A stretch of DNA of 55,202 bases, the filler included, from Sphacelaria rigidula (taxonomy: Eukaryota): the NCBI GenBank assembly GCA_964200075.2. It is 6 parts of 6 records of this genome, joined end to end, with 100 filler letters (N's around TTAATTAATTAA, not from the genome) between each part and the next. Parts side by side here need not be neighbours in the genome. Positions count along the whole stretch, not along the records: positions 27,655 to 36,770 come from CAXNAA020009260.1; 5 more parts are not named here. One strand, 5' to 3'. Position 1 is the first letter of the stretch. Each line of letters opens with the position of its first letter. Below are positions 9,119 to 48,699 of this stretch, one piece after another. The notes beneath the pieces were generated by a model. The model searched no databases and was not told the origin of the DNA. It worked only from the letters and a program-made list of their open reading frames with translations. The position numbers and the translations under genes were made by a program.

Positions 9119-9218
9119 NNNNNNNNNNNNNNNNNNNNNNNNNNNNNNNNNNNNNNNNNNNNTTAATTAATTAANNNNNNNNNNNNNNNNNNNNNNNNNN
9201 NNNNNNNNNNNNNNNNNN
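9119..9218. other. Artificial contig linker (44N-TTAATTAATTAA-44N)
   Basis: Exactly 100 bp with a six-frame stop linker at 9163-9174; identical to the other four linkers. Confidence 0.98.
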
Positions 9219-12794: not shown

Positions 12795-15233
12795 CTAAAG
12801 GCCGTCTTCATATTCTGTCAAGTCGGCCAGGTGGTCAATATCATAGCAATCCCAAGATTCTGGCAACTCCGATCCGAACACAAAGTCTGTCACGTCAACA
12901 TAATTTTCCCCTCCTTCACCGCCGTCGTCGTCATCGTCGTCGTCGTCGTGGTCGCCACCCAAAAGGAGTGCTTCCAGCTCACATACCTCTTCCTGAGTAG
13001 GGGTTGGCGCCTCTTGACATTCGAAGTCATCGTCGTCGTCGTCCGGGAGAGGTGGCACCAGCTGACAGTCCTCCTCCTGAGCAGGGCGTGGCACCTCTTT
13101 ACATTCGAGGTCATCGTCGTCGTCATTCGGGAGAGGTGGCACCAGCTGATCAAACGAGTATTGAGGGGGGGTTGTCACCTCCTTACATTCGAGGTCATCG
13201 TTGTCCTTGTCCGGGAGAGGTGGCGATAGCTGACAGACCTCCTCCTGAGCTGGGCGTGGCACCTCTTTACATTCGAGGTCATCGTTGTCCTTGTTCGGGA
13301 GCGGTGGCGAGAGCTGACAGGTGTCCTCCTGAGCAGGGCGTGACACTTCTTGACATTCAAGGTCATCGCGGTCGTCGTTTGCGAGAGGTGGCGACAGCTG
13401 ATAGACCTCCTCCTGAGCAGGGCGTGGCACCTCTTCACATTCGAGGTCGTCGTCGTCGTCATCCGGAAGAGGTGGCACCAGCTGACAGACGTCCTCCTGA
13501 GCTGGGCGTGGCACCTCCTTACATTCGAGATCATCGCTGTCCTTGTTCGAGAGCGGTGGCGAGAGCTGACAGACGTCGTCCTGAGCTGGGCGTGGCATAT
13601 CTTTACATTCGAGGTCATCGCGGCCGTCGTTCGAGAGAGGTGGCGACAGCTGACAGACCTCCTCCTGAGCAGGACGTGGCACCTCTTCACATTCGAGGTC
13701 GTCACCGTCGTCATCCGGGAGAGGTGGCGATAGCTGACAGGCGTCCTCCTGAGCAGGGCGTGGCACCTCTTTCAACTCGAGGTCATCGTCGTCATCGTCC
13801 GGGAGAGGTGGCGTCAGCTGACAGACCTCCTCCTGAGCAGGGAGTGACACATCTTTCCATCCCTCGCCTTCTAGACCCTCTACGATAGATACTACCGTAG
13901 CCCAGTCAGACGGTTCTAAGCTCTGCGTGCCTTCCTCCGTCTCCGCTTCCGCCGCAGCTGTAATCCACGTGTTGCCGCCTCTCTCGTCAGATCCCGGCTC
14001 CCCCGTACACTCGTCAGACTCCAGCTCCTCTGCCCACTCTGCGAATACGTCCGCTATGAGCTGGTCAATGTCTTCGTCTTCCTCGCCCCTTCTCCCGTCC
14101 GACATCAGTTCCGTGATGGGCGTACCAATCATGGCGAGCCTTTCCTCCTTCCCCGCACCAGCCTCGATCGCCACTCCTTTAGACGGCGTGACTGGCTGAG
14201 CAACTGCTACTTTCTCCTGGCTTTCTCCCTCTACTGGCACTTCAGTTGCAGACGCAAGAGTTAGACCCCCTACCTCTTCATCTCGTCCTTCCGCCGCCGT
14301 GTTTTCTGACGTACATGTAGCGATGGTCGCGTCCTCTGCCGATCCCGTCCTTTCCCTCCCCGCTGCCTCCCCTACCGCAGGCATGGCGACCATGACATCC
14401 TCCTTGTCCTGCCTCAGCCCTTCTCCCATCGCCACTCCTGCTGTAGGCGCAGCGACGTCACCACCCTTCTCGCTCCCGTCGCCTTGGCCGTTCTCCGACA
14501 CTGTCGGGGTCTCTGTTTGAGTAGAATCTTCAACCATTTCCAAGCTTTTCACTCTGGCTGCCTCTGGCGACACGACTGTTGTAGGTGCAGTCGTGCCCAA
14601 CACTGCCTTCATCCCATTGTTGTACCCAAGTCCCCTCACCTCCCAGGGGTGCCGCCTCCTTTTCCTTGTGCCGAAAAACTCCGCGGGAGACAGACCGGGC
14701 GGGAAGGTCGGGCCGTCATCACGCTCCTGTCCAAGATAGTCCTCCCGCTCACGTTCCCGAGATGTACCTTCTTCTGTAGCCAACACTTCTCCTGAAGTTC
14801 GATCGACGGGCTCCGGTCCAGGGCTGGTTAACAAAGCGGATAAAGCGGCCATGTGCCGAGAAGATGACGGCGACGAAGGGGCAGATGGAGACGAAGAAGC
14901 ACCGGGAGTTGAGGGTGAAGCCAACAACGCTCTTTCGTGGTCCCACGCATCATCCTCATCATGGGGGCCGGGCTGGTATGTGCACGCGGTCATCTTCAAA
15001 TTTCTGTTGTCTTGGACTTGATTCGGGTGTAAAGAAGCGCCCGCTGCAGAGAGGAGCAAAATCAAGATGTTATCGTCTTCGCCCACCGCACACTGCAGGG
15101 CTAACAGCATGAAGCTGGCCCATTGTTCCGTCGAGGCTTGCTTGTAGATCGCCGCGAATATTTCCTGAGCGCGCGGGCGTAACTCGTCGGGGTGGCGTCG
15201 CGGTGGCCAGGACCTCGGCCAATCGCAGTACAC
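12795..15233 (-). CDS. Intronless 812-aa ORF: ankyrin-family-like N-terminal helices, low-complexity acidic middle, 28-aa acidic Cys/Pro repeats
   Basis: Longest ORF in the window. N-terminal RAQEIFAAIYKQASTEQWASFMLLALQCAVGEDDNILILLLSAAGA resembles the leader and first repeat of brown-algal ankyrin-repeat proteins. The start is GTG and no in-frame ATG was found upstream, so it may be an internal exon or a pseudogene. Confidence 0.6.
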   Translation of the reverse strand: MYCDWPRSWPPRRHPDELRPRAQEIFAAIYKQASTEQWASFMLLALQCAVGEDDNILILLLSAAGASLHPNQVQDNRNLKMTACTYQPGPHDEDDAWDHERALLASPSTPGASSSPSAPSSPSSSRHMAALSALLTSPGPEPVDRTSGEVLATEEGTSREREREDYLGQERDDGPTFPPGLSPAEFFGTRKRRRHPWEVRGLGYNNGMKAVLGTTAPTTVVSPEAARVKSLEMVEDSTQTETPTVSENGQGDGSEKGGDVAAPTAGVAMGEGLRQDKEDVMVAMPAVGEAAGRERTGSAEDATIATCTSENTAAEGRDEEVGGLTLASATEVPVEGESQEKVAVAQPVTPSKGVAIEAGAGKEERLAMIGTPITELMSDGRRGEEDEDIDQLIADVFAEWAEELESDECTGEPGSDERGGNTWITAAAEAETEEGTQSLEPSDWATVVSIVEGLEGEGWKDVSLPAQEEVCQLTPPLPDDDDDDLELKEVPRPAQEDACQLSPPLPDDDGDDLECEEVPRPAQEEVCQLSPPLSNDGRDDLECKDMPRPAQDDVCQLSPPLSNKDSDDLECKEVPRPAQEDVCQLVPPLPDDDDDDLECEEVPRPAQEEVYQLSPPLANDDRDDLECQEVSRPAQEDTCQLSPPLPNKDNDDLECKEVPRPAQEEVCQLSPPLPDKDNDDLECKEVTTPPQYSFDQLVPPLPNDDDDDLECKEVPRPAQEEDCQLVPPLPDDDDDDFECQEAPTPTQEEVCELEALLLGGDHDDDDDDDDGGEGGENYVDVTDFVFGSELPESWDCYDIDHLADLTEYEDGL
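12970..13845 (-). repeat. 84-bp coding tandem repeat, ~10.5 units
   Basis: Unit PAQEEVCQLSPPLPDDDDDDLECKEVPR; 84-bp period (TCGARGTC at 13021, 13105, 13189...). Confidence 0.95.
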
Positions 15234-18336: not shown

Positions 18337-18436
18337 NNNNNNNNNNNNNNNNNNNNNNNNNNNNNNNNNNNNNNNNNNNNTTAATTAATTAANNNNNNNN
18401 NNNNNNNNNNNNNNNNNNNNNNNNNNNNNNNNNNNN
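18337..18436. other. Artificial contig linker
   Basis: 44N + TTAATTAATTAA + 44N. Confidence 0.98.
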
Positions 18437-24169: not shown

Positions 24170-25030
24170 TCCTTTAAGGTTACCCTCCAACCCGGTGTCT
24201 CGCCGATCTCTTCTCGGCCATACTGGACAAACCCAATCCTTACCGAGAAGGTTAACGCTATCTTGGATGCATATTGGAGGCGGGATTAATACAACATTCC
24301 TCCTCTCCTTGGACTTCGCCCCTTGTGGTCGTCCCCAAAAAGGATGGAAACATACGCATAACCGTGAATTACCAACGGTTAAACCGCGTCACTGTGATCG
24401 GTAAACTTCAAATTCCCCGCATAGATGAAGTCTTCGAATCCTTAGGCTAAGGAAAAATATTCAGCACCTTCGACCTCGCTTCTGGGTTCTTTCAGAATGC
24501 TTTTCACCCTGACATAGTCCCACTGACAGCCTTTTGTACCTCGTCCAAACTCTACGAGTGGCTTCGAATACCACGAGGCACTGCCACTGCCCCGGGATGC
24601 TTCCAACGCTTAATGCAACGCGTCACCGAGGGTCTCGAGCACATCATCATGTACCTGGATGACGCTATCGATTTCAATGCCTCACCTCTTGCACATATCC
24701 GCACTCCACGAGAATTTCTCTCTCCCCTACGCACACACGATTTGAGACTGTCTCCATCCAAAGCTCGCGTTGGTGCGACTGACCAGGATTTCCTGAGGCA
24801 TTCCATTTCGCCAGCAGGCCTGCATCCGGATACAAAGTCAAGACGATGACTGCCTTGCCGATGCCAACCAACATTCCTCAACTTCGCTCATTGTTGGGCG
24901 GACTATCCTACTACCGCACATTTTTGCCGAATTTATCTAAACGGATTCGCCCCCTTCCTGAGTTACTCAAGAAAGGGGCCGTGTTTTCCTTCACAACCGA
25001 TGTGGAAAATATCACCCGCGAATTAGTCGT
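24170..25030 (+). pseudogene. Ty3/Gypsy reverse transcriptase and connection domain
   Basis: SPWTSPLVVVPKKDGNIRITVNYQRLN, IPRIDEV, FSTFDLASGFFQ, YLDD at 24652-24663, QLRSLLGGLSYYRTFLPN; in-frame TAA at 24448-24450. Confidence 0.95.
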
Positions 25031-25089: not shown

Positions 25090-25851
25090 AAACGACCCAA
25101 CTGGAAAGTTCTATCTCGAATTGCCTCGCGACATCCAGGGCAAGGACACCAAACCCCGCGTCTCCGTGCATAGATTCAAACCATGCAGGAACCCGCATGA
25201 TACAAGCGACATGCCCAAGTACCTGCCTGCCGGATTCACACAGTATGTTCTCAACAGCTACTCGACCAAGTCCCCGCCCTACCACGTTACCACCGATGAC
25301 GTGACGGAACAGTCCCTCCGATTGACCGTGTCCACCATCTCCGGTCACCAGACAAACCGTGGTCGAGGTTAATTACTGTCATGTATAAGACCCACTGGAA
25401 CGGTCTCCGAAGAGCGTCTTGGGAACGCGAATCCGACCTTCAATTGCACCGCCGTGCAATCCTCCTGTACTGGACGCAATCTCAATATCAGAATCTTGCT
25501 CACAACAAGAAATATCGCAACATGCGTCGTAGCGCAGCAGCCCGCGAACTTCACCGCGACCAGGGACTACGCTTCGCCGCCGATGGTTACGAACTTGTAC
25601 CCACCAAGACTTGTTAGACGAAGTTCTTTGCAAACGAGCGAATACTACCCAAGGGCAGCTATCCTTGGTTTAAAGGCAGCGAAAACCTCTGGTGGTTGGG
25701 TCAGACTCACTCCGCTAACCTGGTTTCTGCCGACACATACATCGTGCGCTTCATCAATGACCCTGGACCGATACAGCTCAAGCTCCCGCCAGCACTGTAC
25801 ACCACCAACCCATCTGCACCACGTGGATCCTGGTGCCTTCAGCGCCTTTAG
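25090..25851 (+). pseudogene. Integrase C-terminal tail: SH3/GPY-F-like, chromo-like and PWWP-like segments
   Basis: YLELPRDIQG...RVSVHRFKP; TVSTISGHQ...MYKTHWNGLRRASWERESDL; LPKGSYPWFKGSENLWWLGQ...TYIVRFINDPG. RNase H and integrase core are not seen. Confidence 0.7.
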
Positions 25852-27554: not shown

Positions 27555-27654
27555 NNNNNNNNNNNNNNNNNNNNNNNNNNNNNNNNNNNNNNNNNNNNTT
27601 AATTAATTAANNNNNNNNNNNNNNNNNNNNNNNNNNNNNNNNNNNNNNNNNNNN
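27555..27654. other. Artificial contig linker
   Basis: 44N + TTAATTAATTAA + 44N. Confidence 0.98.
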
Positions 27655-30830: not shown

Positions 30831-32179
30831 CTATAGTCCTGCGCTGTCTGTACTGTACTTTGCCTGCTTCCCCTTCACGTCCTACTGACTGCAGCGGTGA
30901 GCACGCTGGAAAAACGGGCGTCGTGATGTATGCTCAGTAGCTGACGGTATGTAACACCCCCATGCACCCAAAGTTACAGGCATCCACTTTATTTAGCTAT
31001 GCGTGGCTCATATGCCGCGCTAACTCTGCAGTATATTGCACCGCACGTAAATAACCACAATACGGTACTGTCCTGCACGGCATTGTACAGTTCAGTACAG
31101 CACCAAACCGTGCTTATTGTTGTGATGTTCATATCGTCGTCAACGTACAGAATAAACCGCGATCATAATTTGTGGCGTTTTTATGGTAGACTCGGGACGA
31201 CAGGGTTTAAAAACCTGTATACATACATTTCAGAAGTTCATGCTGGTATGTCAAAATAATCATCCCTAACCAAAGCTGTACAGCGCGCCCACGTGGAAAT
31301 ACATTCGCGATCAGTGTGTGGGATTTGTAATCAGCCGAGCTTGTTGAAGACTTCGATCCCCTTGCCCAATTGATGAATGGAATGGGGGGCAAGATAATGA
31401 GTTTTCAACAATTTCTGCTTTATCTCGATTCTCATCCACTGATACGGTGCAGCATGTGGGACTTGAACAGCAGAAGTTGCTCGCAAATAGGTTTTCGTTT
31501 TGCCCTATTTCAGGTATTGGCGGGCAAAATGAGGATTTATTTCGAATAACTTCTGGTGTACAAAGTCCATATGCGAGTGTATATGGGATTTGAATAGCCT
31601 CTGCTGTTTGAAATAAATCATTTTGGCCCGATTCCAATAATTTGGAATTAGGATTTATTTCGAATAACTTCTGGTGTACAAATTCCAGATTTTTTTATAG
31701 CACTTGTGATACAAACAGACGGCAGTCTCCAGTTGTGGTCAACATTTGCTTACTCTACAGTGCAGATTGATCACTGAACTAGGAAAACAACAAAACTTCG
31801 GTCAACGAGTACGAAATTTCACTATTTCGGGTGGGACCTTTCATTCTACTTATTGTTTTACTGCCATCCACTTGTGCACGAGTTCGTTCATATTTATTTA
31901 CTACAGGTCGATCCTTTCACATCTTTTCATAAAGTACTCAAGCTCCAAACCGTCTCACCGTTATTCTTGTAACAATGGTAAGCTCACAGCACGTGGGGAT
32001 ACAGTCCAACGCAGTACAGTACACGTCGATCGTCAGGATATCCTTGTTCACAGCTTCAGGTGATTTGATTTCTTTCGTTCGTTGGTGGCGTTGAAAACCA
32101 GAGCCTTCTGAGCGGTTCTGAAAACACCAGGGCATCATAGCATTGCACCGATTCTTAGAAAGAATCGGATTCAACCAGA

Positions 32180-33310
32180 TGTAAGAGGTATGTTTATGTA
32201 CTCCGTATCTTGACGGATTACCTAACATCCTCACCCCTGGCCGCGGGTACTAGCCAGTTCCCGCAATCAGTCTTCCGGGCGCATATCTTTGTTTCGAATC
32301 AACGGCCCATCATTATACTGTCCCCCTTTTCCCCAACGCATCACACCGCGATCCGTAACACCCCCCGTCAGTCCTAGGATTGAAAACCCTGGGACTGACG
32401 TGGTTCACACGATAGATCGCCGCGTTACCATGTCCTTCTTCCGAGTGCTCAGCGTTGGGGTGTAGCCGTCGATCTTGATAACCGCTCTGCCGGGTTAGAC
32501 CACGTGGGGAAATTGACCACCGTGCAGAACGATCCCTTTTTCTCCATTAATTAGACCCTGAAGCGGTTCCGGTACCCTGTTCCTTCACCGCATATTTCCG
32601 CACATCCGACGGCGTCATCTCTTCCCAATCCCCATCTTCATACTTGATACAGTAATACGGCTGACGGCAGTCGAACACTTCCCCGTCGAACTCCTGCTGC
32701 TCACCTTGGCTGTCCACAAACTGTTTACGTATTCTGGTCCCTCCAGGAATGAGTCGCAAAGCTTCATCCCGAGGGAAAGAGTCTCTTTCCGCTCGAGATG
32801 GGTTAACGGATAGGCGTGGTTTGGTTTACGGATTAAATAGTTCCCACAAGGCATGAAACACGTCCAACCGTAGCCCAGTGAAACTGTCCAAAACTTCCTC
32901 CTCTGAAAGCCAGTGAGATTCGACTCCGTCATGAAACAACCTCCGATAGGCCCACTCCCAGGACGACCCTGATTCTAACACCACTTTCCTATCTGTCAAT
33001 ATGTACAGTTGCGGAACGGTCGTGATCTCCTGAGCTAACCCCAAAATCTTCATCGGCGGCGTCCTGCTGTCACTAGGGTTTGCAGCCCTCAGAAATCCTG
33101 CTCCTTGCCGCTGTAGTTTGCCCGATATGTTCCCCCAAATCACCAAAGACTTCCACCACTGCTTTGATGCATAGCTCCCCCCCCCTGCCCCGGTGCCCAG
33201 CAACACCGTTACTGGTGAGCGGTGGCTACTCTTGCTGTGGTGCCAAACTTCAGCTTGTACCCACAGCTGTTGTACATCGCTCCTACTCGCTTCGGCTAAA
33301 ATGGCGTTCG
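32180..33310 (-). mobile_element. Internally deleted Gypsy-like LTR element relic: protease joined to a chromo-like and Tudor-like tail, PPT and 3' LTR
   Basis: VTVLLGTGAGGGSY (LLDTGA with D>G); one frame 33206-32547 with a single internal TAA; PPT GACGGGGGG followed by TGTTACGG at 32360. LTR end uncertain (32180 or 31968). Confidence 0.7.
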
Positions 33311-34263: not shown

Positions 34264-34584
34264 CAAGCAAGGCCTTGACATCTTGAGCCTTCGTCCTCGC
34301 CCATTTTCCTGTATGCAATCAAATCCTGCTTGTTTGCTGCATGGTGTAGGCATATATATATATATATGGTTCATACAACTTTCTCGTACATCCATTCGAT
34401 GTCCGGCTTGTATGTTGGCAACTTGCATAGTCTCCACGATAAACACACTAGTCGTTCATTCCAAGCCAACGACTTCCATTTGATTATTTTCAGTGTAAAT
34501 CCGGCAAAGGAACGTGTGGAACCCATGGACTCTCAGGACCAAAAGAATGTAGCCCTGCCCCCCGGGACGATTATAGCGCGCGCA

Positions 34585-34705
34585 GGTAGACGGTCATCTT
34601 CGAATTGATCGTCGGAGCACGCACGTAGACGGTCATCTTCGAATGGATTGTCAGAGCGTGCACAAGTAGACGGTTATCTTCGAATTGATTGTCGGAGCGT
34701 GCACG
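34585..34705. repeat. ~40-bp tandem repeat x3
   Basis: GTAGACGGTCATCTTCGAATTGAT...GGAGCGTGCAC at ~34587, 34625 and 34667. Confidence 0.85.
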
Positions 34706-34999
34706 AGTATAGGCGGTCAACGGGAACTGACGGAGCATCCGTCTGATGGCCGCATCCAAACACATTAGCCTGCAGCTTCACTCATAGCCGCTCAATCGTT
34801 GTGGATCTGAGTTTATTATCACACTCATAAGTAGCTACATGAAATTTGGCAGGCGGGCACCAACAATAATTGTTGACGAGCAACTGTTGCAGGCTTCATG
34901 CAGTCCTGTGATCCACCGCTGCGGGTAATACTGATCAAATAATGGTATGTTCAGCAGTGGACCTGTAAACAACCACCCACGTATTCACAGTCGAAATAT

Positions 35000-35885
35000 A
35001 ACTATAAGTACATGGTTAGGTTTGATCTCTTAAAATCGAAACAACTTCACAGAACTCTCCATTTGTTTTACGTATGCATGGCTCGTTTATACTCTTTGAA
35101 GATATGTACCAAGGGGGCAAACGATCAAACAGGGGAATCACGTAAAGCTTTCATCAATTTTCCATGACAAAATAGCATTTATTTCGAGCATTAATGATTT
35201 CCCCCCCTGACCAGGTGGTGGGGTAAATACCTCATGTTTCATTTATTCAAGCCTCGCAATTTCTATTCATGGCTAATCGGCTTACATCGTATCGTGCCTG
35301 CTAGCACGTATGCACAACCAGTTTGACATTACGGTTACACAAGTAGATTTTCGTGCATTAGCGGACGGCAGCGTAACAATTTCATTCTCTATCAGTTGCA
35401 TACACGGTAATGTATGAGGTGCGGCTATTAGGTGCACACGGAAACGATCACCTATGTATTGAAAGTCGTGAAGTAAAGTCAAAGTACATGGTTGGGTCTG
35501 ATTTCTTCAAAAATCGGAGCAGACATCACATAGCCCCGAAGTTCTCAAGCATGTATGGCTCGCCCACCCACCCTTTGGAGCTATCCAGCAAGGGCAAAAC
35601 TACCAATCAGGGGGGAACCACGTTGAAGTTACATGCAACTTCTATGGTAATAACACACATTATCGCATCAATGATATGCCCACCCCCCCAACCGGGGTAG
35701 AGTAAATACCCCATGTTGATTCAAGCTTTGCAACTTCCATTCACGACAAATCGGCTCACATGGTATCGTGCCTTGTAGTATATATGCACAACCAGTATGG
35801 CATTACGGTCACACGAGCAGTTTCGTGAATTTGCGAAGTAAATAGAGAGTAAAAATGACATTCTTTCACCGTTGCATCCGTGGCC
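35000..35885. repeat. Old ~480-bp tandem duplication
   Basis: AAGTACATGGTT, GTAAATACC, GTATCGTGCCT, TATGCACAACCAGT and CATTACGGT each recur about 470-480 bp apart. Confidence 0.8.
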
Positions 35886-36770
35886 ATGCATGAGATACTC
35901 TAGCAAGTGGTTCGCGTTCCTAAAAGTATATGCTGTACTCGTTACTAGTTGTAGTCGACAACATCTCGATAGCTCCTGTGTATCTTTTCCGCAGGCTGTT
36001 CGCTAACTCCCATCTGCTGGTTGATATCGCGTTGAGTAGTTTCACTCAGGCAACACGACTATTACTACTTCATGTGTCCCCACAGTATATAGTCTCGAAT
36101 AGACAGTACACGGCAGAGGTTCTTCCGTATGCATAGTCCGACATTTGATATTCGATGGTGATTCGGAACAGTTTTGTTCCCACAGTGAATGCACATTACT
36201 CATGCACTGTTAGACTGAGTACAAAGTGAACGATTTCATCGAGGAGATGGTGCAGGCCGTAATTAGTCAGTACCGTCATCTCGTACAGCCATACTGTGAC
36301 AGCATCACAATAAATAAAACGGTAGCATGTCGTAAAACCCAAGGGTGTTATCGCAACTCAATGTGCGGAGACACGACCGATTTTTAATTCAGCGGGTCTT
36401 CTCGAGTTTGAGTATGTGTGGAGCAGCATATTGTACCGTGGTTCCATTTCATTCAGCTGTATGAAACTCCAAAAATCATAGCGTGCAGCAACAGCAGCGT
36501 CAGTTGTGAATAAGTCTAACGTTAGTCCGTCCAGCGGCGCACGACGATAGAATATACTCGAATTAGTAGGAGTTCAACTGGCATTTACTGTCAACCTCGT
36601 CTGTATACACCATCCCGTTTCTGGTGTGCAAACGTGATGAAAACTCCCGTGTGGTAAATACAGTAAGCACAAGCTTGATGGGTGAAGACGGCATAGTGTT
36701 GTGTTGCTCTTTTCAGCTGCATCACATAGCGGGAAGCACATAGCAGCTGTTGCATGGAAAGATTTAGTAA

Positions 36771-36870
36771 NNNNNNNNNNNNNNNNNNNNNNNNNNNNNN
36801 NNNNNNNNNNNNNNTTAATTAATTAANNNNNNNNNNNNNNNNNNNNNNNNNNNNNNNNNNNNNNNNNNNN
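36771..36870. other. Artificial contig linker
   Basis: 44N + TTAATTAATTAA + 44N. Confidence 0.98.
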
Positions 36871-38481
36871 CCAGCGATCAACTTTTTTCTTCCTTTTGGG
36901 CAATTAGGCCGAAGAAATCGTGAATTTGGTGATTTTGATTCGTGATGATTTGTCCTAACCGTGCAATGTTATCTTCTCTATGCCCCCCGCCCGCATTCCT
37001 CCTTTCTTCTGTGGGTATCGTCGAGTATCGGATTACTCGTTTGGAGAGCGTCGCCTCTTCCCGCACACTCTAAAAGTGACGCTTGATCGTCAGGGCAGTG
37101 TCTTGTGTTCGCTTTTCAAGTCAAAATCTCTGGAGACGGTCGCCTCTTCCTATAATAACCGGCTCTAGAGTTGAACTCTCCGACCTTCGATTGGGTCATC
37201 TGGGTTTTTCATTCATTTTCAAGTGAAAAGTATGCCGATACAACATATGACCGACCCTGGGGTAAGTGGGGGGAGAGTGACACTTGTCCGTGTATTCCCG
37301 AGGTACGAGCTCAAGCCGCAGCGGACGGAGGCTGTAACGGTACGGCGAACATGGCGGTACCAATACAATCAACACCACAGACGAAGAGGAGAGCATAATT
37401 CGGTCACCATGATGTTGTCGGTTCCAGTACACGCCATGTTCTTCACCTTGGGTTGTTTGTGCGGCTGTGTACACAAGCAGCGGCGCTGTCCTCAACAGAA
37501 AATGTCTGAGGGTATCGTATTTGCACATGCGCACGCACCGAACTTAAAAGTTACTCTGCGACCGATTCAGACCTGCCCCCCGACGTTTCCCCCCGAGCCT
37601 CTTCTGGCTGTCGTGATTTTTCACTTGTATGCATTGGGGACGGTGCGTTGCTCAGGACATTCAATCAAGGGATAGGTTTTATCCGGGCGGTTCTCCACGG
37701 TTACGTGCGCGATTCGAGCGCCGATTGTTGCGTTGGGTGCTCACAACCCCAATGCATCACACTGCAGCGCCCATTTCAGGGCACGTCCCGCGGTCAGATC
37801 AGTAAGTCGGAGAAAAAAAAATCAGGGTTAGAGTGTACGCCTTTAAAGCAGGAGGATAAGGCCGCGGCTATGGGGTGCGTGTGGATGGTCAGCAACAGGA
37901 TGTAGAGTGTGAACAGGGAGGGTGTTGCATGCGCGCGCGATCAACCAGTCAAGAGATGAGATGGTGAAAGCAAGTGTATTTGGGTCGAGCATTCCAGGAC
38001 AAGAAAAGAAAAGGAGAATTTCCGTCTGTGGTCGCTATGATTTCCTGGAACAGCTCATTCACTGTTTTTGTCCCGAGTAGCATGTTCAACTGTCTGTGCT
38101 ACATTTGCACTATCCAACAGTGTCGTAGTTGTACAGGAGAGTAAAGGCGTTGTGATGCGTGCATTGAGCGGTACACGCAGCTCAAGAGCAAGGCACAGAA
38201 TTGACGCGGCCGGAGGCGTGTGATTTGAAAAAATTGGTCAATTGTTGATGACGAACTAGATATTTCAGACGTGTAGAGCTTCCCTCTCGAGAAATATCGA
38301 AATTCAAAAGCTCGTCAATTGAGGGTGTTATACACCGTCATGAACCGGTATCGTCCTAGTGCGGAGAAATAAGAAATACAACATCAAGCGAAACCTGATG
38401 AGGTAACAAAGAAACCGAAACCTCTCCTGTGTTGACCACAACAGCCCCTGGCAATGTACTCGTTGCTATATAAATGCGCAC

Positions 38482-38994
38482 CTGACTCTCCATCTGCAGC
38501 AATACCATGTACTCGGCAGGCGTCCTCTCGGGGTCTGTCGGGCCAGTGGGATTACATGGGCGCACGATTCTAACCGAGTGCACGTGCTTCATCATGGGCG
38601 CCACGAATTGAAGCATGTCGGTCGGGATCATATGCGCGGGCACCGACAGTATGCAGAGCAGCGTGCTTCGTCGCTCGGGAAGCTCGCTTCCCGCATTGAA
38701 AGGATTAGTCGGGTTATCGTCGTTGTTGATATTGAGTTGGTGAGTTCGGTAATCGTTGTTCTGGTGAAACGGGTTCGTTGGGCTGGCTCTGGTGTTATTG
38801 TCGGCATCGGTGTCGATGTTGAGGTAGTAAGTCAGTCTCCCCGACAGTAACCCCAGCTGCGGATTTCCCGTCATAAACTCCAGGCTTACTTCCGCCGCCG
38901 CTGCCACCACCATGGTAGCCATGGCTAGGGGCACCAGTGCAAGGAGTTGGGACCTGGACTGACCTGCTGGACACAACATCCATGGTGCTTCCAT
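38482..38994 (-). CDS. BRAP: BRAP2/IMP (RNF52; plant BRIZ) ubiquitin ligase, first coding exon; remaining exons not found on this contig
   Basis: EFMTGNP..GRL and STLLCILSVPAHMIPTDMLQFVAPMMKHVHSVRIVR...YMVLLQMESQ match the BRAP2 RRM-like domain; donor CAG|GTGCGC at 38481. The start codon could be a downstream ATG. Confidence 0.88.
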
Positions 38995-39203
38995 ATTTGC
39001 CTTACTTCTCAGACTCAAATACTGGATCACTACGAAAACGATTCGTCTTGGCGGAACGGAATCTTTTCACGTTTCACCACATAACCCGTGTGGGCGATGT
39101 GTTTCATCACTATACGTTCAAGTGTGTGGCTACATACTTACCACAGTAATCGAAGCAGCAGCACAACGAGCATGTAGCACGCTGGAGCAAAGGCAGGAGA
39201 AGC
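38995..39203. promoter_or_regulatory. Probable bidirectional promoter region
   Basis: Only ~209 bp separate two divergent ATGs; inferred from gene geometry, no motif identified. Confidence 0.55.
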
Positions 39204-43759: not shown

Positions 43760-44659
43760 GCAGCACTACTCGCAGTGGTAATCATGGCCGAGCGGAGTGC
43801 ATTTACCAAAGTCATATCAGCCGTATGGAAAGAGGTCGTAGACAAGGCGGCACGGCAGCACGCCCGCGAACAACGCCAAGTCACTCCGGGGGTAGCCGAC
43901 GCCGTAGCCGAGTCAGTATGCTCCATATCTCGTTCCGTAGTCATGGACGAGTTGATAAACGAATGTGCTTCGGAACTTACGAGGCCTGGCGGGGCGTTGT
44001 GGCCAGATGAGCGCGCCGCTGCAGCGGTGGCCGATGGGGTTGTGTATCGCGTACGCTGCAGCATCATGACAGAAATGATTGAGACATCATTGGTGGAGTT
44101 ATCGAGATCCGGAGAGGCGAAGGGGTTGGTGTTGAAAGGGCCGATTGCCCAGACGGAGGATAGTATCACGAGCGATATTAGTGAACAGGAAGGGCAGGTT
44201 GTAGCAACAGAAGACAGTGTAGCATGTGTAGTGGGAGGAGGAGGGGTAGACGAGCGGACAGGTGAAGATGAACTTCACGAGTCGGATGATGAAATTGGAC
44301 CAGGTCTACCAGAGACAGGGAGCGGTGGTACCGTCGATGATGCCGGGACGATGAGAACGTTGACTATGACCTCGGCCTTGGAGGAGCGGGCGGCTATCAT
44401 GGTCCAGACCGTGGTGCGACGCAAACTGGTCTATCGTGACACGAAGAGACTGGTCGCTCGCACATTCCTCAAGCTGTACGATCCAGTACATCACAACGTC
44501 TACTGGTACAACCAGGCATCGGGAGAGTCAACCTGGGACAAGCCCACTATTATCGATCTCTACTTCAAAAAGCTCGGCAGCGGCGGTGGCCAGGCCGTCC
44601 GGGAAATACACTACGACGAGTATTCTGACGGCACAACATCTGGCGTGATGACCACATGA
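43760..44659 (+). CDS. Exon 4 (terminal): IQ motif and WW domain
   Basis: Poly-T tract and TTTAG| acceptor in frame; AAIMVQTVVRRKLVYR; YDPVHHNVYWYNQASGESTWDKP; TGA stop. Confidence 0.88.
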   Translation, partial: AALLAVVIMAERSAFTKVISAVWKEVVDKAARQHAREQRQVTPGVADAVAESVCSISRSVVMDELINECASELTRPGGALWPDERAAAAVADGVVYRVRCSIMTEMIETSLVELSRSGEAKGLVLKGPIAQTEDSITSDISEQEGQVVATEDSVACVVGGGGVDERTGEDELHESDDEIGPGLPETGSGGTVDDAGTMRTLTMTSALEERAAIMVQTVVRRKLVYRDTKRLVARTFLKLYDPVHHNVYWYNQASGESTWDKPTIIDLYFKKLGSGGGQAVREIHYDEYSDGTTSGVMTT

Positions 44660-45986: not shown

Positions 45987-46086
45987 NNNNNNNNNNNNNN
46001 NNNNNNNNNNNNNNNNNNNNNNNNNNNNNNTTAATTAATTAANNNNNNNNNNNNNNNNNNNNNNNNNNNNNNNNNNNNNNNNNNNN
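45987..46086. other. Artificial contig linker
   Basis: 44N + TTAATTAATTAA + 44N. Confidence 0.98.
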
Positions 46087-46568
46087 TAATTCGGTAAACC
46101 TGACAAGTTGTGGTGTTCTCGGGAAATGTTCTCTTTACAGCTGGACCAGCTGGTATATAGAGAATATTTCGAACTCACGAGAGTCAAGCATACTTTGTAA
46201 AGAGGCGTCCACGAGATTCATTGCTGATTTTAGTGTGCAAGTTCCTCCGCACCCGCTCCGGGAAATGACTGTTCGGGCCAATGCCAATGCTAGTGGCCCG
46301 GTTAGCGGATTCGTGCTTTACAGTGTGCGGGGGTACACATGCGTTCGCGACTGTTCGAACGGACGCGCGATCGCGGTGGTCCTGCAATGTATCCGGCGGG
46401 CATGAACATTTCGAGAAATAATATATTCTCACGGGGGCTTAGCAATGCAAGAATACCGAGACCCTCGAAAAAGACGGACGGGACCGGGGCGCAGCCCCGG
46501 GTCCCGTGCGGCTTGTAACAATAATAATCATAATAAACGTTCCGTTTCCTGTGCCGCGATACCCCCAG

Positions 46569-46904
46569 TCGCTTCTCACCCCCGTGCCGCTGGAGCAACC
46601 GCAACAAGAAGTATACAAGCAGCAGCAGGAACACCAACGACGGCAGTCTCAGACATCGATCATGGAAGGCGTCATCACCGCCCCCAGCGATGACGTCTCT
46701 GACATCAGCACAGTAGATCTCATCAGCGAAAGCTCCAAAAAGCCGCCCCCACCTCCATTCGATACCGGAGCCGTGCGCACGGCAGATCCCGTGATCATGG
46801 CCGCTCTAGGTGGGACTCACTCCTTGGTGCTCACGGCTTCCGGAAAAGTGTTCGGCTTTGGAAGGCAGGAGCACGGTCGGCTCGGAACTGGAGCGGAGGA
46901 AGTG
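46569..46904 (+). CDS. Internal exon of an RCC1/UVR8-like beta-propeller protein
   Basis: CCAG| acceptor, GTG|GTGAGG donor, 336 bp; PVIMAALGGTHSLVLTASGKVFGFGRQEHGRLGTG is a typical RCC1 repeat. Confidence 0.88.
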
Positions 46905-48699
46905 GTGAGGAAGTATTGTACAACGCAGCACAGTGCACGTCGCAGTTAACGGAGACTACCTTCTACTATATGAGTATGATGGACATCCACATATACGCTA
47001 GTGGGGTACATGCACTTCACAGTAAGTGGTACAGTATACTTGCTGTACTTCACAGTGGTGTCCCCATCTCAAGACAGTCCTTTCCGAGGCAGGTTCCTCG
47101 TTTGCAGCAGTGAAAAGATATTTCTCTGGCGGGTGGGGCCCAGTCCAATTTAACCCTGAGTGCCGTTTTAGGGTGATCAATTTTTGCTCGAACTATGCCT
47201 CCTTGAACTGGGGTTCCCAGTGATCTGACATCATGTCGTTTCCCCCAACATATTCGCCGTCCGCGCAGCTTTTTCACCTTCCTGATTTCGATTTTGCAGA
47301 CTGATCGAAGTCACTTGGATGTATCGTTGAAAATGTTCCGAAATGACGATAACACAGTAGCATCATTTAGTCAGCATGAGGCAAAGCTAATGCGAGTAGA
47401 TGAAAGTCCGCCGTTTACGGGAGCGCCCGTCCAATGCCTGGTAAATGGAGTGCAAGCCTGATACCAGGGGAGAAATGGATGAGGTGATCCCGTACCGAGT
47501 CGTCCAGAGGAGAGGGAGGAGGGGGAGATAAAAACTACGGCAAAAAGAAAGAGCAAAATGTGTACTGATGTACGTGCACCAAGTAGTCCAACGGTATGCC
47601 TCGTACACATACGAGTGCTGTCCTAAGTGAGTACAGCACGCATAGCAGGGATCTATCTGGGGTCCTCCGATTGATTCAGGTGTTCTACCTACTTGCCATC
47701 TTTGTACACCTGTAGGCCATACGAAAAACAAACTGTACGAGCTGACAACGGAAGCAGCGTATAGATGGAATCTCGTTTGCGAGCTTGTTCAGCTCATCTC
47801 GAGAAAGTACAGGGCAGTTCCCCGACTACCAAAGTATTTGAATCGACCATTTCGTAGACCATGGGCGCCACGTTTTGAGTGCGATATACATGAAAATAAT
47901 GGGGATATTTTGCCTGTTGTCAAATATCGTCTCGGTGTATATGAACAACGGTTTGCACACGTGCACAGTACCGGCAGTAACGGGCAAATAATATGGACCG
48001 TATCTGATCATTAAACCCTTGACCGTCAGGGTAGGTAATCTAGGTCTCATGGTCATTTTCCACGCGAAAACGATGCCGATTCAAGAGATGACCCACGCTG
48101 GCGGTGAACGGGTTGAGATGGGCGCACGCATGAAGGCGGGTAATGCAGAGAATATGGATTCATGGCATCAACAGCATACAAAGTAGTGCCAGGTACAAGA
48201 AGGGTGTATGCCAACTATTGCACGTTACTGCACGCGCCGACGTTTCGTCCCATTTTTCACGGAGGGGGTCATCACCAGACCTGAGTCTTCTTGTTTCGAG
48301 TTGCACCCGAGCTTCGCTGCGTCTCCCGCCCATCGAAAATCGATGACCAAAACTGACAGCCCATCGGTCGCCCGGGAGATCGCGTTTGAAAATGACGATT
48401 CTTGCTAGGCAAGACCTGCGACGTGATCTGCATGGTAGACACGAAGTATACTTCAATGGTGGTCATGTACATTAGCGTGCGTACGTATCTATGCCTCAGG
48501 CTGAAGACGACATGGGGGTCACGATGCCCGTTGAGGTTTCTATGCTGCAGCAGCCGGGGGACTGGCGTGTGCGCTCGATGAGCTGCGGAGGCGTTCACTC
48601 GGCAGCTATCCTCGTGCGACAGTCGGAGGAAGACAACAGCTGAAAGCGGGAAATGCTGATGTTGTGATTCCGCCGATAGTGACCCTCGCGAACTGGTTG

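Follow-up and report, generated by a model that had tools for sequence, protein, structure and literature searches.

Chromo-like and Tudor domains at the Pol terminus, and a predicted methyltransferase-fold insert, in a Ty3/Gypsy family of Sphacelaria rigidula

The closest described system is Gypsy-10_Ec32 of Ectocarpus (Gypsy-10_ES in Repbase), which the accessible text of PMC12477816 reports as the first transposable element with a Tudor domain, with 636-bp LTRs, a 4-bp target duplication and one full-length copy accompanied by many deletion derivatives. The same text describes a homolog in Tribonema, argues for repeated capture of reader domains, aligns the Gypsy-10_Ec32 Tudor to cd20401 and, in that portion, names no C5 methyltransferase in Gypsy elements. 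Active retrotransposon DNA methyltransferases (DNMTs) are described for KnitGypsy-Dnmt3 of Klebsormidium and for SymbioDIRS-Dnmt3 and SymbioLINE-Dnmt in the available part of PMC5890265, where stramenopiles are not mentioned. Brown algae are reported to be without DNMT1, DNMT3 and DNMT5, with H3K79me2 and H4K20me3 linked to repression and with H3K9, H3K27 and DNA methylation missing (accessible text of PMC13076208), and a BLASTp survey of proteomes recovered DNMT1 from Discosporangium and outgroups alone (10.1101/2024.02.19.579948, as far as its accessible part goes).

We analysed a 55,202-nt stretch of DNA from Sphacelaria rigidula (the window), and looked for copies of its elements in a 244-Mb fragmented assembly of the same organism. 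The window is made of six contigs with N spacers (core TTAATTAATTAA) between them, at 9119-9218, 18337-18436, 27555-27654, 36771-36870 and 45987-46086; since the contigs are separate and merely spacer-joined, adjacency across the spacers carries no meaning. The tail under study lies on the minus strand of contig CAXNAA020009260.1. Elsewhere in the window there are probable host exons for BRAP2 (38359-39066, minus strand; E 1e-11), a WW domain (43760-44656, plus strand; below cut-off) and an RCC1 repeat (46443-46946, plus strand), and at least ten tandem 84-bp units (12891-13946) within an 848-codon minus-strand frame that has no Pfam match. No tRNA genes were found in the window. Four sequencing runs presumed to contain RNA yielded dispersed contigs that speak neither for nor against expression. 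The element features, in the order in which they are read on the minus strand, are as follows.

34264-36770, minus strand: internal, non-coding part of the derivative, which reaches the end of the contig (the 5' LTR lies beyond it), 91-94% identical to copies L029, L030 and L031
33313-34263, strand not assigned: 41-bp tandem array, common to deletion copies, at the place of gag in fuller copies
33046-33272, minus strand: N-terminal half of the aspartic protease, in frame with the tail, with a degenerate D[ST]G motif (tblastn with residues 44-135 of P0001, E 1e-16)
33034-33045, minus strand: deletion junction with 12-nt microhomology, whose two sides lie about 5.0 kb apart in fuller copies
32844-33005, minus strand: chromo-like domain, three predicted strands and a conserved LDVFHALW helix (from the model of the relative P0033)
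32826-32828, minus strand: internal stop in the chromo/Tudor linker, at a site open in sister copies
32592-32741, minus strand: PTM/DIR17-like Tudor domain (PF21743, 28 bits against a cut-off of 27.2)
32547-32549, minus strand: terminal stop of the pol frame
32370-32546, minus strand: 3' untranslated stretch, where other copies have a longer, duplicated piece
32361-32369, minus strand: short polypurine tract (PPT; a G6 run) immediately before the LTR
31707-32360, minus strand: 3' LTR, 654 bp, TG...CA, with both bounds (32360 and 31707) shared by many LTR-only matches

A first-pass annotation of this DNA had described a chromo-like and a Tudor-like segment in one frame with a single internal stop, and six-frame translation placed all of its quoted motifs on the minus strand: YILTDRK (33005-32985), WEWAY (32960-32946) and HWLSEEEV (32915-32892) share one frame, which also holds GTRIRKQF (32741-32718) and YYCIKY-EDGDWEEM (32657-32616), while the plus-strand frames of the window encode no protein with these tail motifs. 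The annotation also had the stop followed by a polypurine tract and the TG of an LTR. These elements do exist, yet the purine run at the stop is not the polypurine tract, and the G-run and TG lie 186 bp beyond the stop. In this family the hallmarks of Ty3/Gypsy elements are present, namely TG...CA LTRs, a primer-binding site, a polypurine tract and a short target duplication. The primer-binding site TGGCGCTT stands 3' of the LTR in 8 of 14 further LTR copies, and the 4-bp target duplication at six LTR copies lacking the primer site (solo LTRs) was exact in two and had one mismatch in three. A search of the organism's own genome with the window tail gave 40 scored matches among 137 candidates, at 83-100% identity.

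The window copy lacks the integrase core, as first annotated: when a full Pol protein was mapped onto the window, residues 44-135 (protease) and 1816-1968 (tail) of P0001 came to lie end to end, and the rest of the protease, reverse transcriptase (RT), RNase H (RH), the methyltransferase-fold insert discussed below, and integrase (IN) are lost. From this copy the link between tail and integrase had been thought merely positional, which is not so in fuller copies. In sister copies L021 and L037, uninterrupted frames of 732 and 861 aa match Integrase_H2C2, rve and PF21743 (the last at 26 and 27.5 bits, respectively), and since integrase, chromo-like segment and Tudor share one open frame in sister copies, the fusion to integrase is established. 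The proposed order of RT, RNase H, integrase, chromo and Tudor in one ORF was likewise recovered from public proteins: P0001 (1978 aa) and CAB1110846.1 of Ectocarpus (1881 aa) each contain RT, RNase H, integrase and tail in a single ORF, with PF21743 scoring below cut-off in both (E 0.012 and 2.6e-4, respectively). Cladosiphon okamuranus, Nemacystus decipiens and Ectocarpus sp. CCAP 1310/34 are the sources of the named relatives, which makes a brown-algal host likely, and the Pol order PR-RT-RH-IN of Ty3/Gypsy elements (Metaviridae; PR, protease) is present in P0001, P0188 and the genome copies. Taken by itself, a window copy without integrase could suggest that the Tudor belongs to a host or domesticated gene lying beside LTR debris. 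This has next to no probability, however, because the Tudor is multi-copy, LTR-flanked and, both in sister copies and in public proteins, read in a single frame with integrase, which refutes the host-gene reading. All 30 of the PF21743 loci fetched, out of 76 found, align to the Pol tail described here, and they belong to at least three families.

The element resembles Gypsy-10_Ec32 in that a Ty3/Gypsy Pol ends in an integrase-fused Tudor, in its 4-bp target duplication, in its many deletion derivatives, and in LTR size (654 bp here versus 636 bp). Ectocarpus CAB1110846.1 shares an integrase clade with the window family, while Gypsy-10_Ec32 itself was compared by description; matched in this way, the window family probably belongs to the Gypsy-10_Ec32 lineage. 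There are two differences. The accessible text on Gypsy-10_Ec32 names a Tudor only, whereas here, and also in CAB1110846.1, a predicted chromodomain precedes it; and the window family has a C5 methyltransferase-fold insert that CAB1110846.1 is without.

The Tudor assignment rests on a profile match above the curated cut-off, so that the PTM/DIR17-type signature first proposed from motifs alone is borne out in the window copy (28 versus 27.2 bits); unlike the PF21743 family at large, here the domain ends a retroelement Pol. Sister tails score 30.8-35.7 bits and sister families up to 42, and a shortened 69-aa piece of the window Tudor gave no Pfam match. We take cd20401 to be the AtPTM-like Tudor model. 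Six columns of the domain are aromatic in 25/38 to 33/35 rows.

The preceding segment is below Pfam detection, with no match to Chromo (PF00385) in window pieces or sister tails, and its assignment comes from structure prediction for the tail of P0033, a relative 28% identical to the rows of the window family (in the alignment of the two, A6, four rows of the other lineage described below are misaligned onto the chromo part). The model has pLDDT above 90 across both the chromo and Tudor modules. For residues 1-74, all nine of the structural matches listed for that region, among 50 listed in total, are chromo-type at modest Z of 4.7-5.3 (below 8). Oxpecker, Rhino, SUV39H1, Chp2 and Chd1 are chromo-type by title, and the HP1, cpSRP43, eEF3 and GEN1 matches we take to be so; the set thus includes the non-histone proteins eEF3, cpSRP43 and GEN1. 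Such scores agree with a chromodomain but also arise among widespread structural arrangements. The Atlas score for the chromo-like part reached only 0.82. A comparison of its profile with the PF00385 chromodomains of the same genome was not significant (13.2, with the best column shuffle at 21.0), and a sequence search of solved structures with the tail returned nothing useful. We conclude that the segment before the Tudor is predicted to have a chromodomain fold, in agreement with the initial proposal. A chromo-fold module likewise follows the GPY/F region of integrase in chromoviruses, Chronos and ECR-1 (PMC11541908). In ECR-1 the cage retains its three aromatics and, in the accessible text, no second reader is reported, whereas the chromo-like part of the window family escapes Pfam and has a Tudor behind it. 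Another repeated family in this genome (L155-L166) carries a canonical PF00385 chromodomain at the frame end, with no sequence kinship to either of the tails described here, and is possibly ECR-like.

Both tail domains are under purifying selection in fuller copies. Between the two subfamilies, dN/dS over 35 pairs, which are not independent, was 0.18 [0.10-0.36] for the Tudor and 0.17 [0.08-0.31] for the chromo-like part; the values of integrase, RT and the inter-domain linker were 0.12, 0.17 and 0.79, respectively. Among deletion copies the values were 0.80 [0.49-1.41] for the Tudor (13 copies) and 0.40 [0.21-0.71] for the chromo-like part, and constraint on the Tudor is apparently relaxed there.

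For the P0033 tail model, the top of the Foldseek ranking is taken by multi-Tudor readers (SETDB1, 53BP1, Spindlin and Agenet), with E values no better than 9e-4 and low TM-scores of 0.13-0.19. When the cage positions of the chromo-like part are mapped onto the HP1 cage, a correspondence we assume, two are mostly aromatic (30/41 and 26/42) and the third is not. A tail of Royal-family fold might read no histone mark at all, its partner being instead DNA, RNA or some host protein, or its role being to stabilise the intasome in the manner of the GPY/F SH3 domain ahead of it: the chromo cage is incomplete, and in the fold lists chromo and SH3 barrels of non-histone proteins score level with readers. 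On the other hand, the best Foldseek matches are histone-reading Tudor arrays, the aromatic columns are conserved, and the integrase chromodomains of plants and fungi are known targeting modules (cited in PMC11541908). Chromodomains do occur both in centromeric and in genome-wide ECR-type elements, according to the accessible part of 10.64898/2025.12.07.692804, so that the target is not fixed just by having a chromodomain. Weighing these points, we regard a role outside histone reading as unlikely and prefer chromatin tethering, in which polyprotein cleavage would leave integrase carrying the chromo and Tudor modules, and these predicted modules would bind modified nucleosomes and bias insertion, with H3K79me2 and H4K20me3 as candidate marks.

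In fuller copies of the family, RNase H and integrase are separated by an additional stretch of approximately 300 residues. When this insert was compared by sequence with solved structures no match was obtained, and PF00145 matched only 2 of 27 members, with a best E of 0.0008, far under the cut-off; across the genome PF00145 gave two weak matches, both outside the element. Structure gives a different picture. ESM Atlas scored the insert 0.96, with 29 of 30 matches in PF00145 clusters; its model (pLDDT 86, pTM 0.84) retrieved C5-type methyltransferases in every row listed by Foldseek (best E 3.8e-10); and in structural comparison 19 C5 enzymes scored Z 21.4-13.3, the best with rmsd 3.6 over 273 aligned residues, and the next methyltransferase folds 10.7. 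These results predict a C5 DNA-methyltransferase fold over the whole domain, as a relative at the level of fold and not as an enzyme. A genome search with the insert, in which 110 of 131 candidates were scored, gave 72 matching places; the insert is also found in the Cladosiphon gene model P0009 and, partly, in the Nemacystus gene model P0012. Two sister families lack it at all 10 loci examined, as does Ectocarpus CAB1110846.1. A search with the insert profile for longer proteins found none, which is a weak search because such proteins exist (P0009). In the RT-RH tree the rows with the insert form two branches beside the insert-free clade, with an open fork, which fits one gain and one loss.

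Several observations were made alongside the insert. On the strand opposite RNase H and the beginning of the insert, eight of nine copies hold an open frame approximately 280 codons long (246 codons in the ninth; copies include L022-L024, L032, L033 and L035-L037), where the sense frame is often broken; this antisense frame may be a shadow of codon usage. Between protease and RT there is a conserved segment rich in beta structure (P0001, residues about 250-350; the same in L022, L093 and L094) that has no Pfam match and is reminiscent of a degenerate dUTPase fold. In the distant relative P0021, residues 1-270 show methyltransferase-like motifs by eye and another barrel-like segment precedes integrase, neither of which gave a score with our profiles.

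Compared with KnitGypsy-Dnmt3, SymbioDIRS-Dnmt3 and SymbioLINE-Dnmt, the insert is alike in being a C5 methyltransferase domain, here by predicted fold, within the Pol frame and under purifying selection. Those DNMTs, however, keep their key catalytic residues, are active, and reside in methylated genomes, while the insert is about 12% identical to solved enzymes, is without the PC motif, is missed by PF00145, and belongs to a group from which DNMT1, DNMT3 and DNMT5 are reported missing (PMC13076208). Using a motif register that we set, by assumption, from the motifs of M.HhaI, we saw neither PC nor a Cys at motif IV in any of the 18 copies parsed (25 examined, own genome). A Cys without the Pro was present in 4 of 11 public relatives, P0009 among them, and in no relative did we see the PC dipeptide or the ENV motif (motif VI). 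The dN/dS of the insert is 0.27 [0.21-0.33] and that of the spacer behind it 0.26 [0.15-0.49], and because the two are equal the constraint on the insert is not specific. CpG observed/expected was 0.88-0.95 in the elements and 1.0 in the window, that is, without CpG depletion. Some members of the lineage might still have a catalytically active insert, methylating the cDNA of the element or its target DNA, given the motif IV Cys in those 4 of 11 relatives, the retention of motif I, rich in glycine, and of a basic motif VIII, and the activity of the Symbiodinium and Klebsormidium retrotransposon DNMTs (PMC5890265, accessible part). Against this stand the lack of PC or ENV in relatives and of Cys in all 18 parsed copies, the elements without CpG depletion, and PF00145 scores far below cut-off, and we consider such activity distinctly improbable. 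In the genome of the window, the modelled insert is likely catalytically inactive; it would have been gained early in the lineage and lost in some families, and may be retained as a non-catalytic module binding nucleic acid or SAM.

The window copy itself is one of a group of deletion derivatives. Among the 19 other best copies, 12 have the same microhomology join, 5 are integrase-joined and 2 are otherwise rearranged. The gag of L032 and L033 has no match in deletion copy L029. In a tree of tail DNA the deletion copies group with one subfamily in a star-like arrangement with end branches near 3%, and tails are open at similar frequency among deletion copies (4 of 13) and integrase-joined copies (5 of 12). 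We infer an old burst of deletion copies that would have been moved in trans, since LTRs, primer site and polypurine tract are kept. In the window copy the tail would then be a passenger beside cis signals. The in-frame join of protease and tail raised the question of a selected fusion protein, which we rejected as unlikely because gag is missing and the Tudor drifts.

Within the non-coding region of the element the window also shows a 450-bp direct duplication (34967-35418 and 35442-35894, 69%) and a second short array of 39-41-bp units (34575-34709). At G000:C1532 (L030, L113) a 10.5-kb deletion derivative lies between two LTRs that are 89% alike; a primer site follows the second of them, which suggests a tandem or recombinant array.

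A second Gypsy lineage is present on another contig of the window, with the following features.

24451-24846, plus strand: partial RT belonging to this other lineage (RVT_1, E 6.7e-15)
25373-25842, plus strand: tail of the other Gypsy lineage, with chromo-like YKTHW...SWERESDL at 25384-25440 and a terminal barrel at 25642-25842

This lineage has at least 40 copies in the genome, its tail is fused to integrase in L042, and a sequence search of solved structures with that tail gave as sole match the Polycomb chromodomain 1pdq, at E 0.31. The profile of its chromo-like part, too, showed no significant similarity to the PF00385 chromodomains of the genome. The two lineages are distinct, as originally described, being 27-32% identical over RT-RH and falling into separate clades in both RT-RH and integrase trees (quick trees; 3 of 41 rows were left out of the RT-RH tree for low coverage). 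Their terminal domains are dissimilar, again as first described (hhalign, 0.19%), and their chromo-like parts show no similarity either (0.18%). The tails of P0033, P0071 and P0131, distant relatives of the window lineage that fall apart from the other lineage in the integrase tree, have a third module behind chromo and Tudor, and this module is homologous to the terminal barrel of the other lineage (hhalign 95.8%; 28 bits versus 8.2 for the best of 1000 shuffles), in a comparison of three distinct sequences with boundaries set by eye. The third module of P0033 is modelled as an SH3-type barrel, matching the RDM15 Tudor (Z 6.2, rmsd 2.2, 56 aligned), with which TraI and other SH3-like barrels tie at Z 6.4-6.0.

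These results bear on the initial idea that both lineages had independently added a second Royal-family reader behind the chromodomain. For the window lineage a second Royal-family domain is supported by PF21743; for the lineage at 25320-25851 it is unproven, since Tudor and non-reader barrels are tied. As to independence, two captures of different second barrels from host genes, each behind the lineage's own chromodomain, would agree with the separate RT-RH and integrase clades, with the mutual dissimilarity of both chromo-like parts and second domains, and with the captures published for Ectocarpus (PMC12477816, accessible text). But the barrel is shared with relatives of the window lineage, so that module exchange or loss also fits: a shared module pool, exchange of tails, or loss from a three-module tail would fit equally, and among the 30 loci examined of the 76 with PF21743 a host donor gene is absent. 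Independent capture is in our view a serious contender, at somewhat below an even chance.

Taken together, we find it fairly probable that the tail in the window is a passenger of a non-autonomous Ty3/Gypsy deletion copy, that the predicted chromodomain and the Tudor of fuller copies likely tether integrase to chromatin, and that the methyltransferase fold is likely inactive. A more speculative proposal, which we hold only tentatively and rate as doubtful, is that this brown-algal clade holds the last C5-methyltransferase-fold domains of a lineage that has lost host DNA methylation, repurposed within Pol in non-catalytic form (at the outside still active in the Cys-bearing relatives) and coupled to a modular chromo-Tudor(-barrel) reader array, with parts that pass between unrelated Gypsy lineages, which aims integration at H3K79me2/H4K20me3 chromatin.

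While the Tudor fusion has been known since 2025, the chromo-Tudor tandem and the methyltransferase-fold insert appear to be unreported: we found no report of either in the literature covered, most subscription journals and Repbase lying outside that coverage. The surveys that found DNMTs absent from brown algae used sequence searches of host proteomes, and the insert is invisible to PF00145. If our reading of it is true, the insert would add one more independent case of a retrotransposon acquiring a DNMT and would be the first such domain reported in a dead but selectively maintained form, making testable what benefit such a domain brings to an element where the host is without 5mC. A tail with two readers, in algae where H3K9 and H3K27 are unmethylated, would also allow a direct test of the marks that retrotransposons recognise there.
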